A stretch of 64,000 bases of DNA from an uncultured Methanomassiliicoccales archaeon (GTDB lineage: Archaea > Thermoplasmatota > Thermoplasmata > Methanomassiliicoccales > UBA472): the NCBI GenBank assembly GCA_963732855.1, contig CAVTBB010000002.1, forward strand, positions 336,632-400,631. Direction: 5' to 3'. The position numbers were made by a program, and so were the translations under genes. This document shows, in pieces, positions 1,420 through 10,965 of the stretch (within the stretch, counting starts at the first letter, position 1; the number at the start of each line of letters is the position of its first letter). The notes below the pieces were generated by a model. That model saw only the letters and a program-made list of their open reading frames with translations. It was not told where the DNA came from and searched no databases.

Positions 1420-2391
1420 TTAACGCAAATAAATGCTGCCCATTTCCTTGTTCCAAGCCCATTCGTCCTCGGTCCTAGCGTCGAGCTTCGCCCGGACTAT
1501 CTCCTGTATCCTTGAATCCAGTGTGTCTGCTTGAGCTATGGCGACCGCTTCGGGGAACGATGGTTCCTTTGGGGATCCATATTCCAGCTCTCCGTGGCTG
1601 CTGAGTATGATGTGGCTTATCTTCAGGCGGAGGTTATCCGGAAACTCCGGTATGGTGCGTATCGCCAGGCTGATCATCTCGGCCCCGATGACGATGTGAC
1701 CGCGCAGACGTCCCTCATTCGTGCAGTCAATGTTCGTAGTGACAACGTACTCGTGAACCTTACCGATATCGTGCAGGATCGCTCCCGCCAGTAGCAGGTC
1801 CCGGTCCATCTTGGGGTACATATCCCCCATCGTGTCACAAAGCTTGGTGACGTCCAGCGTGTGCTCCAACAGACCGCCGATCCAGTTGCAGTGATGGGTT
1901 ATTGCGGCTGGGCACTTCTTGAACTCCTCGACGAACGTTTCGTCTGCGAAGAAGTATGTGAGCAGCTCTAACAGCTTCGGGTCCTTGACCTTCTTGATGT
2001 ACCCGTTCAGCTGTGTCATCATCTGGTTGATGTCCTTCTCTGTCCTCGGTACGAAGTCCTCGAGGCGGTACTCTCCCTCAGTCAATGCAAGGACCATGTC
2101 GCCATTATCAGGGTTGATCGCGATCTCCAGGATCTCATTGTACTCCTGCGCCTTTCCCTTTACGCGGAGAACGCCACCGGGAAGGATCGAGTCATATACC
2201 TTGCGCACGGCCATCTCGTTGGTGTTGCCGAAGTACTTGACCGCGATATCGCCGGTCTTGTCGCCGACCCGCACGTCGAACATGAAGCCATTTTTGCTCT
2301 TGCGAACCGGCTTCTTGAACTTGACCGAGAACATGTCGTCGACCTTGGTCTCTTTGTTAAGGTCCTTGATGAACTGCTTCTTTTCTGCCAT
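1420..2391 (-). CDS. YhaM/Cbf1-like 3'-5' exoribonuclease (OB-fold + HD domain)
   Basis: N-terminal OB-fold (VGDKTGDI), HH..GGLLEHT, ILHDIGK, ILSSHG..EYGSP motifs. Confidence 0.85.
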   Translation of the reverse strand: MAEKKQFIKDLNKETKVDDMFSVKFKKPVRKSKNGFMFDVRVGDKTGDIAVKYFGNTNEMAVRKVYDSILPGGVLRVKGKAQEYNEILEIAINPDNGDMVLALTEGEYRLEDFVPRTEKDINQMMTQLNGYIKKVKDPKLLELLTYFFADETFVEEFKKCPAAITHHCNWIGGLLEHTLDVTKLCDTMGDMYPKMDRDLLLAGAILHDIGKVHEYVVTTNIDCTNEGRLRGHIVIGAEMISLAIRTIPEFPDNLRLKISHIILSSHGELEYGSPKEPSFPEAVAIAQADTLDSRIQEIVRAKLDARTEDEWAWNKEMGSIYLR

Positions 2392-2460
2392 TGACTTGCC
2401 CCTTGCCCCTAATGATATCTGGTTAATATTGATACCGGACGGCGGGCTGAAAACGCCGGC

Positions 2461-3154
2461 TCATACCTTCTTTGCCGCGACGCGTTTCAGCCAGTCCTCC
2501 GCCTCGCGATAGCGGGGGTGGATCCTCTCCATGTCCTTGAAGTGCTTGTCGTGGTACCGGCCCAGAGATTTGAGACCGCCACGAAGGTGAAGCAGTTCAT
2601 GATAGAGAACGTACTCCGGGACGTATTCCGGTAAACGGTCGGTGTCCAAGGCGGAACTGATCGCGATGACCCGCATCAGGATCGAACAATATCCGAGGCG
2701 GGCCCGGTTCGGACGGCTGGTCCAGGTAATATAGGTGTTGGGGATGTCAGGCACCAGGCCTTGATCCTTCAAACGTTCGAACGATTCCAGCAGCTGGTAA
2801 TTGCTGCCCTCAGACCGGTAAGCCAGATTGCGGCTGCGGTGCAGGTAGACCGGACGATTGGTGTCCAAGAACTCCCTCGACTGGAACCAGTCCTTCATGC
2901 GCTCGTTGTAGAGCTCGACCTTGCCCTTGGACCGGAGCCTTTTGAACAGGTTGTCAGCGAACTCGTCGATCGATCTGACCGTCCGCGCATTCCAGATAGT
3001 CAGTGACCTTGAAATCGGCGGTGTTCCCGGTCCTTTGCCAGCTTGCCTTGAAATCCTTGAACGGGAAGAAGCTCGCGCTCACTTTATCGTATCCGTGCGC
3101 CCTGCCCGCCCTCTGGAAAGAAGCGCCGATCCCATCCTGTACATCCGTCGTCAT
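2461..3154 (-). pseudogene. YgjP/DUF45 (M48/SprT-like, HExxH) protein split by a +1 frameshift at about 2968-2975; pseudogene or sequencing error
   Basis: ORF 2954..3154 (..FKVTDYLECADGQI) continues in another frame as DEFADNLFKRLRSKGKVELYNER-MKDW into ORF 2461..2898, which has VLYHELLH; the junction is a tandem GATCGATC. Confidence 0.75.
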
Positions 3155-7577: not shown

Positions 7578-8690
7578 CTAACCCTTTTCCGGTCTGATAT
7601 CGATCCCGTAGTCCCGATGGAACTTTTCCAATCTGGAACCGATCAATGAAAATAGCGCACGTTCCGCGAAAATCGTGGCGTTCTTCCCCACGATCACGTC
7701 ATGGATGCAGTTCTCTAAAGCATCGAAACCGTAGTCCACGCCGATGCAGCGTTCCTTCATCAGGCGCCTGGCCACCGCTCCGTATATCCCGGTCACGGAA
7801 TGCCGGTTCATGATGTCCGGTTGCATTGTTCCCAGTCGATCGGGGAGCTCCTCAGCCGGGAAGAGCCTCAAACTGCCCCGCAACGCTCCGTAGGGGGCAA
7901 ACTTCTGTGCCAGCTCCAGCGTCGTCCTGGGATAGGGCTTCAATGGCCGCACCGAACGGTCGGAGAGCTCACGATTCATCTCGAACATCATCGGCACCGA
8001 CAGGCCGAGTCGCCTTACCTGACCGGCATTGACGAAGAACCCGTTCGGGTCGCCGGAATAGATCATCCTTCCCCGGTCCAGCACCCTGATCTCGTCCGCC
8101 CAGCCATAGGCCGTCTCCACGTCGTGGGTGGACATGATGACCGTCAGGCCTTTGAAGTTCAGCTCGTCCGCCAGCTCCAGCAGCTCATGCACCATCTGCG
8201 CGTCCAGCCCGGCTGTCGGTTCGTCCATGACCAGCACCTTGGGCTTCATGGCCAGCGCCCCCGCCAATGATACCCTCTTCCGCTGACCGAACGAAAGCTG
8301 CTGGGTGGGCCTATCCCTATGTTGAGCCATGCCAACAAAGGATAGGGATTCGGCCACGCGCAGTTCGACCTCATCCCGGGGCAGGCCCATGTTCATTGGT
8401 CCGAAGGCGACATCCTCCTCCACCGTGGCGGAGAATATCTGGTCATCCGGGTTCTGAAGAACGACCGCGACGTTCGAACGGAGCGCATCCAGGTCCTTCT
8501 GGCGATAGGTGACCTCCTTGCCCTCGAACGACACCGTTCCGGACTTTGGCTTGAATATCCCATTGAACTGAAGGAACAACGTGGACTTGCCGGCACCGTT
8601 CGGTCCCAGCAGGACGGTCTTCTTGCCCTTCGGGATGGTCAAGCTGATGTCGTCCAACGCCACGATCTTGTTCGAATAGGAATATGTCAA
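7578..8690 (-). CDS. cbiO: ECF transporter ATPase CbiO with about 100-aa C-terminal extension; true start uncertain (frame open to about 8720)
   Basis: Walker A GPNGAGKS, QNPDDQIF Q-loop, LSFGQ signature, DEPT, THD; follows cbiMNQ. Confidence 0.9.
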   Translation of the reverse strand: MTYSYSNKIVALDDISLTIPKGKKTVLLGPNGAGKSTLFLQFNGIFKPKSGTVSFEGKEVTYRQKDLDALRSNVAVVLQNPDDQIFSATVEEDVAFGPMNMGLPRDEVELRVAESLSFVGMAQHRDRPTQQLSFGQRKRVSLAGALAMKPKVLVMDEPTAGLDAQMVHELLELADELNFKGLTVIMSTHDVETAYGWADEIRVLDRGRMIYSGDPNGFFVNAGQVRRLGLSVPMMFEMNRELSDRSVRPLKPYPRTTLELAQKFAPYGALRGSLRLFPAEELPDRLGTMQPDIMNRHSVTGIYGAVARRLMKERCIGVDYGFDALENCIHDVIVGKNATIFAERALFSLIGSRLEKFHRDYGIDIRPEKG

Positions 8691-8727: not shown

Positions 8728-10473
8728 TCACCAGATCCTGAAAGAACCGAACACGGCGGAATTCAACAGATACAACACAACGAACACCAGCAATGGCACC
8801 AGTATCCACACGAGGGTCACCTTGGCTGGTGGTCGGAACGAATGGAACTGGCCTCGGAACCCACGACACTCCAGCGCCACCTGGGAACGGTCAGCTACCT
8901 CCATCGATCGAGTGAACAGCCCGACCGCCAATTTCCCTGAAGTGCGGAACCTGTTGCGGAGCCCCCTGAACCCGAGGCGACATTGGGCGGCCACATACAT
9001 CGTGCCCAGCAGATCGAGCAGCAGGAACGAATACCGATAGATCAGGACCACTAGCTCGGATATCTCCTTCGGAAGGCGCAATTGCCCCATCGCTTCGGAG
9101 AGATGCGGTATCGGCGTCGACGTGGCGAAGAACAACATCACCGACATGCCAGCCAGCGCCCTCATGAACACCAGCAAACCAAGGTTCATCCCTCCATCGG
9201 ACAGGCTCAGTCCGAGTCCGAGAAGATCTAGGGAGTACAGGGTCGTACCGGGTGTGATCAAGGCGATGACCAATGACCCTATCACCAACACCGCCAATCC
9301 GTTCAGCAATGCCAGCAGAACGACACGGGGGAACCGCAAGTGGGTGGAGTACGCTAGCAACACCGTCCCTCCCACCAGTACCATCCCAGGCACGGCAATC
9401 GAGGTGGCGAAGATGGAGGCGAACAGCATAGCCAGAGCGAGGAATAGTTTGCCCAGCGGTGGCCAGCGCCTCATTGGCGAGGCGAACGCGATCTCGTCGA
9501 TGGAGGAAGGGGCGCCTATCGCCGGGCTTTCCTTTAACTTCACCTTCTTCTTCCGCAGCCGGTGCACGACGTATCCGATTATTACCAGGCCGATCAATCC
9601 CTGGACCATGAACAACCCGACCTCCAGCGTTGCAGAGGGTGTCCATATGCTGTTGAACCAGGGCTGATAATCGGGGACAATGCCTTGAATTAGCTCTCCC
9701 CCCTTGTCGTCCGCTCCGACCAGGTCGGATGCCAGGTTGAAGGTATAGGCGACAGCGATGATCGAGACGATTGCGATCAGCCCCACCAGGTAAATGATCT
9801 TCGTTCTCCTCGTTTCGTTGCGCACCACCTCACATCCCTCGATGATCTCAGGACGGCTCCGAGTGAGAAAATCGAAGAAGATGACGATGAGAACGCCTTC
9901 GGCAATGGCCAAAGGTATCTGAGTGATGGCAAACACCGCCAGGAACGCCTCGAGCGAGACCAGCACGCTCCCTCCTGAGGGATAGGCCACGGCAAGTTGG
10001 AACGATGTCACGAAGTAGGTCGCCATATCCGCCAGGAAGGCAGCGATGAAGACCGATGCGGCGATCGGGGCTCTTGCACGTCGCAGCCCTTTGAACACGA
10101 AGTAAGCAAAGAACGGCCCGGCTATGCCCATCGAAAAGACGTTCGCCCCCAGGGTGGTTATCCCGCCGTGCGCCAGCAATACCGCTTGGAACACCAATAC
10201 AATGGTGGCCAGGACAGAGGTGATCGCTGGCCCGTACAGGATCGTGGAAAGCCCGGTCCCGGTCGGATGGGACGAGGAACCACCGATCGAGGGTAACTTC
10301 AACGACGAAAGGACGAATACGAAAGCGCCGGATACGGCGAGAACCAGTTTTTGTTCCGGGTGCTCCCGGAAGATGACCTTGATCTTCCTGACCCCCCAGA
10401 ACACGAATGGAATGGAGACGAGGAACCAGAACAGGCACCAAAGGGGCGGAAGGAAACCTTCCATTATGTGCAT
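8728..10473 (-). CDS. Fused cobalt/nickel ECF transporter CbiM-CbiN-CbiQ
   Basis: N-terminal MHIMEG metal-binding motif (CbiM), GADD...YQPWF..IWTP (CbiN), then CbiQ-like TM domain with IYRY and ECRGF. Confidence 0.85.
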   Translation of the reverse strand: MHIMEGFLPPLWCLFWFLVSIPFVFWGVRKIKVIFREHPEQKLVLAVSGAFVFVLSSLKLPSIGGSSSHPTGTGLSTILYGPAITSVLATIVLVFQAVLLAHGGITTLGANVFSMGIAGPFFAYFVFKGLRRARAPIAASVFIAAFLADMATYFVTSFQLAVAYPSGGSVLVSLEAFLAVFAITQIPLAIAEGVLIVIFFDFLTRSRPEIIEGCEVVRNETRRTKIIYLVGLIAIVSIIAVAYTFNLASDLVGADDKGGELIQGIVPDYQPWFNSIWTPSATLEVGLFMVQGLIGLVIIGYVVHRLRKKKVKLKESPAIGAPSSIDEIAFASPMRRWPPLGKLFLALAMLFASIFATSIAVPGMVLVGGTVLLAYSTHLRFPRVVLLALLNGLAVLVIGSLVIALITPGTTLYSLDLLGLGLSLSDGGMNLGLLVFMRALAGMSVMLFFATSTPIPHLSEAMGQLRLPKEISELVVLIYRYSFLLLDLLGTMYVAAQCRLGFRGLRNRFRTSGKLAVGLFTRSMEVADRSQVALECRGFRGQFHSFRPPAKVTLVWILVPLLVFVVLYLLNSAVFGSFRIW

Positions 10474-10844
10474 TTGGGCTCACACTCCGGGCAGACACCG
10501 CGGAGATGCAGCTCCCACCTTTCAACCTTCATTCCGGTCTTGCGGGAGAGTTCTGGCACATTAAGGTCGAACGGCACAGAATAGAGCCTGTGACAGACCG
10601 AGCACTCGAAGTGGGCGTTTGAGAAAGGGTGTTTCACGAAAGCTGCGGAAGAGCTCATCTTCGATTCTGATATCAACCCTTCCAGCACCAGTTTGTTGAG
10701 GTTTCGGTAGACCGTACCCAGACTGACGTTCGGCAATCGCTCCTTGGCCTTCAAATAGACATGCTCGGCTGTGATAGGGGAGTCGCTGTTGTAAACAATG
10801 TCCACGATGACCTTCAGCTGCTTCGTCCATCGTGTTTTGGGCAT
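10464..10844 (-). CDS. Fur/PerR-family metalloregulator
   Basis: SLGTVYRNL recognition helix, HFECSVC and GVCPEC zinc-site motifs. Confidence 0.9.
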   Translation of the reverse strand: MPKTRWTKQLKVIVDIVYNSDSPITAEHVYLKAKERLPNVSLGTVYRNLNKLVLEGLISESKMSSSAAFVKHPFSNAHFECSVCHRLYSVPFDLNVPELSRKTGMKVERWELHLRGVCPECEPKCT

Positions 10845-10847
10845 ATC

Positions 10848-10866
10848 AGTAATGATTATCATTATC
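10848..10866 (-). promoter_or_regulatory. Fur-box-like operator GATAATGATAATCATTACT
   Basis: 17 of 19 nt match the E. coli Fur consensus GATAATGATAATCATTATC; ends 3 nt upstream of the Fur-like ATG. Confidence 0.7.
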
Positions 10867-10965
10867 AAGTTATTTATTGTTATTCAGCAATGGATGGATG
10901 TATTAACAGGTCTCATGACAACATAGAAAATTGAAAAGGACGGAATGGTCCGATGGCTGAAGATA

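Follow-up and report, generated by a model that had tools for sequence, protein, structure and literature searches.

A 64,000-nucleotide stretch of the genome of an uncultured Methanomassiliicoccales archaeon (GenBank assembly GCA_963732855.1, contig CAVTBB010000002.1, positions 336,632 to 400,631; hereafter the window) carries, on its minus strand at 10848..10866, the 19-bp Fur-type box GATAATGATAATCATTACT, placed just before a gene for a Fur-like protein and the genes of a CbiMNQO importer, a cobalt- or nickel-class uptake system of the energy-coupling factor (ECF) type. This motif is likely the operator of an autoregulated metal circuit formed by a single operon, fur-cbiMNQ-cbiO. Autoregulated control of a Co/Ni-importer operon had been predicted in a first-pass annotation of the window, and the prediction is supported here by the conservation of the box, by the co-occurrence of Fur and cbiM, and by the boxes of bacterial homologues.

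The box and its place in the promoter

Read directly from the minus strand, GATAATGATAATCATTACT is a 6-7-6 inverted repeat formed by two overlapping 7-1-7 elements, and is followed by the letters gat and then by the ATG at 10844..10842. The first-pass annotation had placed the box on this strand, 3 nt before the Fur-like ATG at 10844, and had likened it to the E. coli Fur consensus GATAATGATAATCATTATC at 17/19 positions; the direct read confirms the placement and the 3-nt gap, and a position-by-position comparison gives the same 17/19 identities. Dinucleotide shuffles yield an expectation of 0.02 matches to the Fur consensus per window at up to 3 mismatches, and the 19-mer occurs once in the 2.54-Mb genome (53.5% G+C), even with 3 mismatches permitted. 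The two "mismatches" to the consensus (ATTACT, not ATTATC) are the conserved, clade-specific part of the box and are common to PerR-like bacterial relatives. Of the earlier description as a bacterial-style operator, the part that stands is that the box type is shared with the promoters of bacterial homologues, whereas the likeness to the E. coli consensus is a generic feature of the family.

Boxes of the 7-1-7 kind are known for B. subtilis Fur (TGATAATnATTATCA), PerR (TTATAATnATTATAA) and Zur (TCGTAATnATTACGA), and the 19-bp E. coli Fur box is readable as overlapping 7-1-7 units. At the window locus, the core operator TGATAATCATTACTG is a 7-1-7 inverted repeat at 10847..10861 (minus strand), with 10 nt from its central C at 10854 to the A of the ATG. 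A second 7-1-7 element, TGATAATGATAATCA, overlaps it with a 6-bp offset at 10853..10867 (minus strand), contains the left GATAAT hexamer, and scores 17.2 bits with the position weight matrix (PWM) described below. This second element is conserved only in the window's genus and in genus g8 (L003-L005, L013, L016, L019), most other genera being without it. The predicted core box of the archaeal clade is a hybrid of GATAAT and AGTAAT half-sites, unlike the B. subtilis boxes.

A look upstream of orthologues, which the first-pass annotation had proposed as a check, found the 7-1-7 element T(G/A)(A/G)TAAT-N-ATTAC(T)(A/G) at the equivalent position in 32 of 36 distinct orthologous promoters. Its centre lies 9-13 nt before an ATG or GTG start in 28 of the 32, and the four promoters from genus g3 share one operator, centred 13 nt before an inferred TTG start. 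Among the remaining promoters, L031 and L032 have only a half-box, located further upstream, and no box was found at L024 and L050, which counts against the operator reading. With the box centre as the reference point of an alignment of 28 promoters, the 15 box positions hold 1.48 bits of information each vs 0.17 at -45 to -25. The same element stands out in a comparison of the window genome with genome G006, in which synonymous sites of fur and cbiMNQ differ by 0.49-0.68 substitutions per site and dN/dS is 0.086 for fur and 0.081 for cbiMNQ; only one of the last 40 promoter bases differs (39/40 identical), and the sequence between -120 and -60 is scrambled. It is the right-hand 15-mer, 10861..10847, rather than the whole 19-mer, that forms the conserved core. 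The motif is a conserved non-coding element lying between a TATA-like box and the fur-like start codon.

The putative archaeal promoter contains the TATA-like element AATAAATA at 10871..10878 (minus strand), its centre about 30 nt before the ATG. Across the 28 aligned promoters, an AT-rich conservation peak is found at -24 to -16 from the box centre, about 19 nt upstream, and the ATG follows 10-12 nt downstream of the centre. In archaea, the TATA box is usually found some 26-27 nt ahead of the transcription start. With the centre of the TATA-like element about 30 nt from the ATG, transcription would be predicted to begin 0-5 nt before the ATG, where the Fur-type box has its 3' edge. The sequence between the box and the ATG at the window locus contains no Shine-Dalgarno motif. 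This geometry suggests that the fur-cbiMNQ-cbiO mRNA is leaderless or nearly leaderless.

Two other ways of reading the motif bear on the same positions: it could be coding sequence of a longer protein, starting at the TTG at 10868 or the ATG at 10862, or merely an AT-rich core promoter. Both codons are in frame upstream of the assigned ATG, the frame is open from 10868, and in many orthologous loci the ATG inside the box is likewise in frame; the motif is also AT-rich like a TATA box. However, the box-internal ATG is out of frame in L013 and L019, runs into a stop in L018, and is absent in L016 and L017, while an ATG (or GTG) just downstream of the box is present in every orthologous locus, and protein similarity to the orthologues begins at residue 4 of the 126-aa Fur-like protein. 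Because the internal ATG is unusable in these five loci and the downstream start is universal, neither 10868 nor 10862 is taken as the true start, and the coding reading was rejected; the TTG at 10868 had been named in the first-pass annotation as the start that would make the motif coding sequence. Against a core promoter, a box acting as TATA would place the transcription start inside the gene, a palindrome identical to the boxes of bacterial homologues is not expected of a TATA box, and a separate AT-rich peak exists upstream of the box. We consider either version hardly credible.

Under the operator reading, the product of the first gene, a Fur-family dimer, would bind the 7-1-7 repeat TGATAATCATTACTG, extended at this locus by the second overlapping repeat. 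The operator would be situated downstream of the TATA box and upstream of the start codon, covering the point at which the leaderless or nearly leaderless mRNA is predicted to begin, so that the metal-loaded repressor would block recruitment of RNA polymerase and turn off both its own gene and the ECF importer. When metal is scarce, the repressor would leave the DNA and the importer would be made. This scheme of binding, repression and metal dependence is modelled on Fur-family co-repressors and on archaeal repressors that act downstream of TATA, and the start site is likewise a prediction; the sequence, conservation, position, co-occurrence and uniqueness of the box and the loss of sensing ligands in the protein are shown here.

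MDR1 of Archaeoglobus fulgidus, a DtxR-family metal repressor encoded by the first gene of a metal ABC-importer operon, has operators over the transcription start that block recruitment of RNA polymerase. By analogy, the box described here would occupy the position from which archaeal repressors exert this block. The two systems are alike in having a bacterial-type metalloregulator in an archaeon, encoded by the first gene of its operon, with an operator downstream of TATA and autoregulation, which is predicted here; they differ in regulator family and in transporter class.

The operon and the probable reach of its regulator

The fur-like gene (10464..10844, minus strand) encodes a PerR-derived Fur-family regulator of 126 aa (PF01475, E 1e-12). 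It is followed on the same strand by a cbiM-cbiN-cbiQ fusion of 581 aa (8728..10473) with the N-terminus MHIMEG and Pfam matches to CbiM, CbiN and CbiQ, and by the last gene of the operon, cbiO (7578..8690), which encodes an ECF-type ATPase of 370 aa (TIGR01166). Profile scores exceed the respective cut-offs for cbiM (TIGR00123, 285 bits; cut-off 184), CbiQ (TIGR02454, 115.8; cut-off 111.8) and CbiO (TIGR01166, 249.9; cut-off 211.8), and the importer comprises a CbiM S component with an MH N-terminus, CbiN, a CbiQ T component and a CbiO ATPase. The fur stop codon, TAA at 10466..10464, overlaps the cbiM start (ATG at 10473) by 10 nt, in agreement with the stop/start overlap reported in the first-pass annotation, and this arrangement suggests translational coupling. 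In 28/30 loci, cbiM starts at the fur stop.

The distribution of the two genes links regulator and importer. A Fur-like protein occurs in 29/36 genomes of the same family vs 1/24 genomes from other families of the order. Of the 36 family genomes, 28 carry Fur together with CbiM and 6 have neither, some of these 6 being 93-99% complete, which leaves only 2 discordant cases; gain and loss of Fur go hand in hand with gain and loss of its CbiM. The fur gene of the Methanomassiliicoccus-type subclade ends in an oligo-T run, and cbiM there has a promoter to itself, which includes a second, related box, reading AGTAAT-N7-ATTACT at L052.

A further link between protein and box comes from bacterial homologues (L054-L112), which carry the same box types in their own sigma-70-type promoters; those with an identical recognition helix, SLGTVYRNLNK, bear tAGTAATnATTACTa there. 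A single residue of this helix tracks the box, with SLG-TVYRNL accompanying AGTAAT/ATTACT and SLA-TVYRNL accompanying GATAAT/ATTATC. The archaeal clade is of the Gly type, and its sole Ala-type member, L018, has a GAT/ATC box. Because relatedness inflates this correlation, it is used as supporting evidence only.

A genome-wide scan with a Fur-box PWM had also been put forward in the first-pass annotation. For this purpose a palindromised PWM was built from 15 distinct orthologous operators and was run alongside a reversed-sequence control. The fur site, at 21.5 bits, is the best site in the genome, against a control maximum of 20.2, and at a threshold of at least 10 bits the genome yields about as many matches as the control (189 vs 197). 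Since only the fur site exceeds the control, the regulator appears to control only its own operon, as expected of a local, autoregulated circuit with a single-operon regulon. A larger regulon was considered and rejected, as whole-genome scans with both the consensus and the PWM gave as many matches as the reversed control. Two secondary sites, C5:1762 (before a gene for a CxxCxxCC protein) and C1:238674 (before a response regulator gene), are suitably placed, yet neither is conserved in the two closest genomes, G006 and G003, and both were rejected. An iron regulon finds no counterpart in the scan: the next-best sites have neighbours without a link to iron and are not conserved. No peroxide-defence gene in the genome carries the box.

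Three observations concern neighbouring or similar sequences. About 120 residues of CbiO, past the end of its ABC ATPase domain at about residue 250, have no Pfam assignment. At L031 (genome G001), about 1.2 kb separates fur and cbiM (1870-3077), and by eye this interval possibly encodes a transposase-like protein; if it does, the gap suggests an insertion sequence that splits the operon. Elsewhere in the window genome, at C2:570377-570500, the Fur-box-like 15-mer TGATAATGATTATGA (16.8 bits) stands at the start of an uncalled open reading frame of about 41 codons that encodes a small hydrophobic protein, MIMKFSLRRDKEARTGLLGLIIIIVIVLVILAFFGLFGLHL, a coincidence that is probably due to chance.

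The Fur-like protein, its putative sensing site and its ancestry

The protein encoded by the first gene, the only Fur-family gene in the genome, matches PF01475 with 48.7 bits vs a gathering threshold of 23.1, its residues 4-112 aligning to profile positions 4-118 of 121, so that both the DNA-binding and the dimerisation parts are covered. Its best solved relatives are PerR of Streptococcus pyogenes (4i7h) and PerR of Bacillus subtilis (2fe3), followed by Campylobacter Fur (E 2e-13 to 1e-3). The Fur-type regulator named in the first-pass annotation is thus a member of the Fur family by PF01475, but not an ordinary Fur, as it belongs to a PerR-derived clade without the canonical sensing ligands.

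To compare ligand positions, the 36 archaeal proteins and 59 sequences from outside the clade were aligned with B. subtilis PerR. The Cys4 structural zinc site (C81, C84, C118 and C121) aligns with PerR C96, C99, C136 and C139 and is invariant in all 36 archaeal proteins. The regulatory site is a different matter. In the Fur family, regulatory site 2 has the signature HHxHx2Cx2C together with a histidine in the DNA-binding domain (PMC11672702), from which the SNAHFECSVC of the window protein departs. At the equivalents of H37, D85, H91 and D104 this protein has P, V, N and S, and only H93 is kept (as H78). The 59 outside homologues keep H37 (59), D85 (57), H91 (58), H93 (59) and D104 (59). Across the 36 archaeal proteins, by comparison, the H37 position is P or N, with H in 8, the D85 position has no acid, the H91 position is N in 36/36, H93 is retained in 21, and C, S or R stands at D104. 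The archaeal proteins have clade-specific residues of their own: H72, N76 and E80 (Q in 2) are invariant, and C125 is present in 28/36. A second archaeal subclade has instead a histidine at the H37 position, H85, and cysteines at the D104 position and at position 110. The new residues (H72, N76 and E80, plus H78, C125 or the extra His/Cys) may together form a metal site.

Phylogenetic analysis recovered the archaeal Fur clade as monophyletic (100/100 support) on a branch of 1.22 changes per site. Its nearest homologues outside the clade are bacterial, at 30-42% identity. Gene neighbours were read from N-terminal sequences at the 11 nearest homologue loci (10 bacterial, 1 from Methanosarcinales): 8 of these homologues lie directly upstream of a rubrerythrin gene and one upstream of a peroxiredoxin gene, and the Methanosarcinales locus adjoins glutaredoxin-like and desulfoferrodoxin-like genes. 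Such surroundings are those of PerR in anaerobes. The archaeal proteins depart from the PerR subfamily, which has a five-ligand Fe/Mn site with oxidisable H37 and H91 and controls peroxide-defence genes, both in their ligands, with D85 and D104 lost along with the histidine changes, and in their neighbours, which are cbiMNQO genes. From these comparisons, the clade seems to be restricted to Methanomassiliicoccales and to descend from PerR-like bacterial regulators, and we read it as a PerR-type scaffold that would have kept its DNA specificity while its sensing site was rebuilt.

This ancestry raises the question of whether the regulator responds to something other than the substrate of the importer, be it the redox state or the status of iron, zinc or manganese, or is held permanently active by its structural zinc, and so gates Co/Ni uptake. 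Its nearest relatives are PerR-like and lie beside rubrerythrin or peroxiredoxin genes, its best solved matches are PerR proteins, the dismantling of the canonical site makes any effector conceivable, and the extra cysteines might be redox-active, whether C125 or the pair at the D104 and 110 positions. Yet the peroxide-sensing histidines are gone, with N at the H91 position in 36/36 and H37 in only 8/36, and peroxide-defence genes lack the box. Moreover, a regulator that is coupled to, and predicted to be co-transcribed with, one importer only bears the usual signature of substrate feedback. We regard a non-substrate signal as improbable.

Candidate metals, known systems and a putative corrinoid-regulon palindrome

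Within the single-operon circuit, the sensed metal is most probably the transported metal. We give Co(II) about an even chance of being the effector, with the other half shared equally between Ni(II) and any other metal or signal. Cobalt is suggested by the Fur-linked S component, which passes the cbiM equivalog cut-off, starts with MHIMEG and is fused to a CbiN segment. It is favoured because the genome has a separate NikMN system under NikR control: a second importer operon encodes a NikM-type component (MHIPDG, 316 aa) and a NikQ-like component, two perfect GTAACAC-N13-GTGTTAC repeats precede it (L114 1400-1426 and 1459-1485; C2:139177-139203 and C2:139236-139262), and a NikR gene is present (NF003381, E 1e-46, L115 1327-1791). 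The NikM-type system coexists with fur-cbiMNQO in 27/36 family genomes, and in genus g5 (L009, L014, L018) a nikM-like gene lies back to back with fur, each promoter having its own box type; the boxes of these nikM-like genes are similar to the GTAACAC-N13-GTGTTAC repeats. In G007 and in two families that lack Fur, f6 and f7, orthologous cbiM genes are located in or near cbi clusters and are accompanied by the corrinoid palindrome described below.

Several observations weigh against cobalt. The window genome (97% complete) has CbiD, but no CbiC, CbiK or CbiX was detected in it. CbiX was tried as a marker of corrin synthesis and proved uninformative, with no match in the window genome, and CbiC was used instead; the CbiX family also includes the F430 Ni-chelatase type. 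CbiC is found in 8/36 genomes of the Fur-bearing family, and in only 5/28 of the family genomes with fur and cbiM vs 12/12 genomes of the Fur-less families f6 and f7. Because of this low count, most fur-cbiM carriers seem unable to make the corrin ring, an outcome that contradicts the expectation that fur-cbiM tracks de novo corrin synthesis and gives most carriers no evident need for cobalt. In genomes without detected CbiC, fur-cbiMNQ is under strong purifying selection. In addition, CbiM- and NikM-type components are not reliably separable from sequence alone, the putative ligand set, known from conservation, differs between the two archaeal subclades, and the only characterised precedent for a Fur protein acting on a CbiMNQO-like ECF operon, that of Mycoplasma genitalium, concerns nickel (PMC6968530).

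A nickel circuit would have the same architecture, with an importer that supplies Ni for F430 and hydrogenases and a Fur-like protein that senses Ni(II), as do Nur or M. genitalium Fur. Nur of Streptomyces coelicolor is a Ni-responsive Fur-family repressor of nikABCDE and sodF. The lack of corrin-ring genes in most carriers and the high Ni demand of methanogens would fit such a circuit, as would the Mycoplasma case, in which a Fur-family protein of a bacterium acts as repressor of a CbiMNQO-like ECF operon and keeps Ni accumulation in check: M. genitalium Fur (MG_236) represses the operon MG302-304 and hrl, and the fur mutant contains about 10-fold more Ni and variably more Co (PMC6968530). 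On the other hand, the genome has a distinct NikM-type importer with NikR-type boxes and a NikR gene, the NikM-type genes that lie back to back with fur in genus g5 have a separate box, the S component linked to Fur scores above the cbiM cut-off and has the CbiN segment, and the cbiM orthologues of f6 and f7 accompany cbi genes. On balance we judge the nickel circuit unlikely.

Parts of this arrangement have counterparts in known systems. With bacterial Fur-family repressors in general, the archaeal regulator shares the FUR domain, the helix TVYRNL, the Cys4 site, an AT-rich 7-1-7 repeat, overlapping repeats and predicted autoregulation, whereas its archaeal host, TATA-type promoter, degenerate HHxH signature (SNAHFEC; PMC11672702) and single-operon regulon set it apart. 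PerR of anaerobic Firmicutes and relatives resembles it in sequence (30-42% identity), in the helix SLGTVYRNLNK and in the tAGTAATnATTACTa box, but the bacterial proteins have kept the five ligands and peroxide-defence neighbours, while the archaeal clade has lost ligands and flanks cbiMNQO. M. genitalium Fur is likewise a Fur-family regulator with a dyad operator and an ECF-type importer of the Ni/Co class; it differs in its sigma-70 promoters, in being encoded outside the transporter operon, in having no CbiM/N S component nearby, and in that nickel is implicated. Nur is another Fur-family member dedicated to control of Ni/Co-class uptake (see also PMC11672702), but has other ligand sets, a classical ABC importer and a GC-containing box, and no close sequence relationship to it was seen. 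Among archaeal proteins, SisPerR of Saccharolobus islandicus is described as redox-sensing, with metal-binding residues that map onto B. subtilis PerR, and the metal transporter MntH is among the targets identified for it by ChIP-seq and reporter assays; it too belongs to the Fur family in an archaeon and acts on genes of metal homeostasis instead of those for antioxidant enzymes, although it is crenarchaeal and no link to CbiMNQO is reported for it (PMC11724291).

Bacterial cbiMNQO operons are usually controlled by B12 riboswitches or NikR, according to a 2021 review (PMC7689651, citing Rodionov et al. 2006). Riboswitch control has the same type of target operon, but the candidate operator here would be bound by a protein and is not RNA. 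The same review reports that no cobalt importer had yet been found under the control of a protein-based cobalt sensor (PMC7689651), and the accessible part of a 2024 article in Chemical Reviews, which has Fur proteins sensing all late first-row divalent metals except Cu, names no Co sensor. Our literature search found no description of a Fur-cbiM link in archaea or of a cobalt-responsive Fur, nor any protein sensor of cobalt controlling a cobalt importer since the 2021 review. Fur-family operators and autoregulation are textbook knowledge, and archaeal Fur-family regulators and the action of Mycoplasma Fur on an ECF importer of the Ni/Co class are also already known. What appears to be new is the PerR-derived clade without the canonical site and its dedicated coupling to archaeal CbiMNQO, and possibly also cobalt as the effector.

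Cobalt import is thought to be regulated via its product, through B12 riboswitches, and if the regulator does sense cobalt, it would be without precedent as a protein-based cobalt sensor in control of cobalt import. With nickel or another effector, the locus would still provide a clean new archaeal Fur-family regulon, if a less surprising one. In either case it is a compact and directly testable candidate, with one small protein, one operator of 15-19 bp and one operon, for which 36 natural variants define the conserved residues and bases. It would illustrate the integration of a bacterial-type metalloregulator into an archaeal TATA promoter and the repurposing of a peroxide-sensor scaffold, with the metal site rebuilt and the DNA specificity kept. 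Methanomassiliicoccales are corrinoid-hungry methanogens of gut and sediment, and control of their trace-metal supply therefore bears on methane biology.

A second type of sequence signal is found in some cbiM leaders. The palindrome TTGGATG-N3-CATCCAA is found in the cbiM leaders of L047, L052, L031 and G002, downstream of the Fur-type box, and the palindrome also occurs without a Fur box in the cbiM leaders of Fur-less families; further cbiM leaders with the general form TTGGATR-N3-YATCCAA are those of L161, L154, L158, L165 and L166. Its 15-nt core occurs 5 times in the window genome vs 0.3 times expected (C2:303698, C2:312482, C5:72108, C1:197232 and C3:749939), and 4/5 of these sites precede genes for a BtuF-type binding protein, a CbiA/CobQ-domain enzyme or a B12-binding corrinoid protein, or a gene beside cobS-/cobY-like genes. 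The 17-mer TTGGATR-N3-YATCCAA is present in 53/61 Methanomassiliicoccales genomes, and the reversed control gave 0 matches in any of them. No Rfam family matches the fur promoter or the five palindrome loci. The palindrome is a candidate order-wide operator of a corrinoid regulon or, alternatively, an RNA hairpin with a 7-bp stem and a 3-nt loop.

It is tempting to speculate that in one family the Fur module was added to this corrinoid signal, or replaced it. More broadly, though with confidence somewhat short of even, we propose that the clade represents a new functional class of Fur proteins: a Co(II)-sensing co-repressor derived from a PerR-like ancestor, with a rebuilt site (H72, N76, E80 and His/Cys), which would serve as the dedicated feedback regulator of CbiMNQO in Methanomassiliicoccaceae and would be layered on, or replace, the corrinoid palindrome in lineages that no longer make the corrin ring.

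The fur promoter of the window itself contains a half-site-like relative of the palindrome, CATCCATCCA, at 10891..10900 (minus strand), about 12 nt upstream of the TATA-like box. In genera g1, g3 and g8, ATCCATCCA occupies the corresponding position upstream of fur, often as a pair with 11-nt spacing, and the CATCCATCCA element may be a second regulatory input to the operon.

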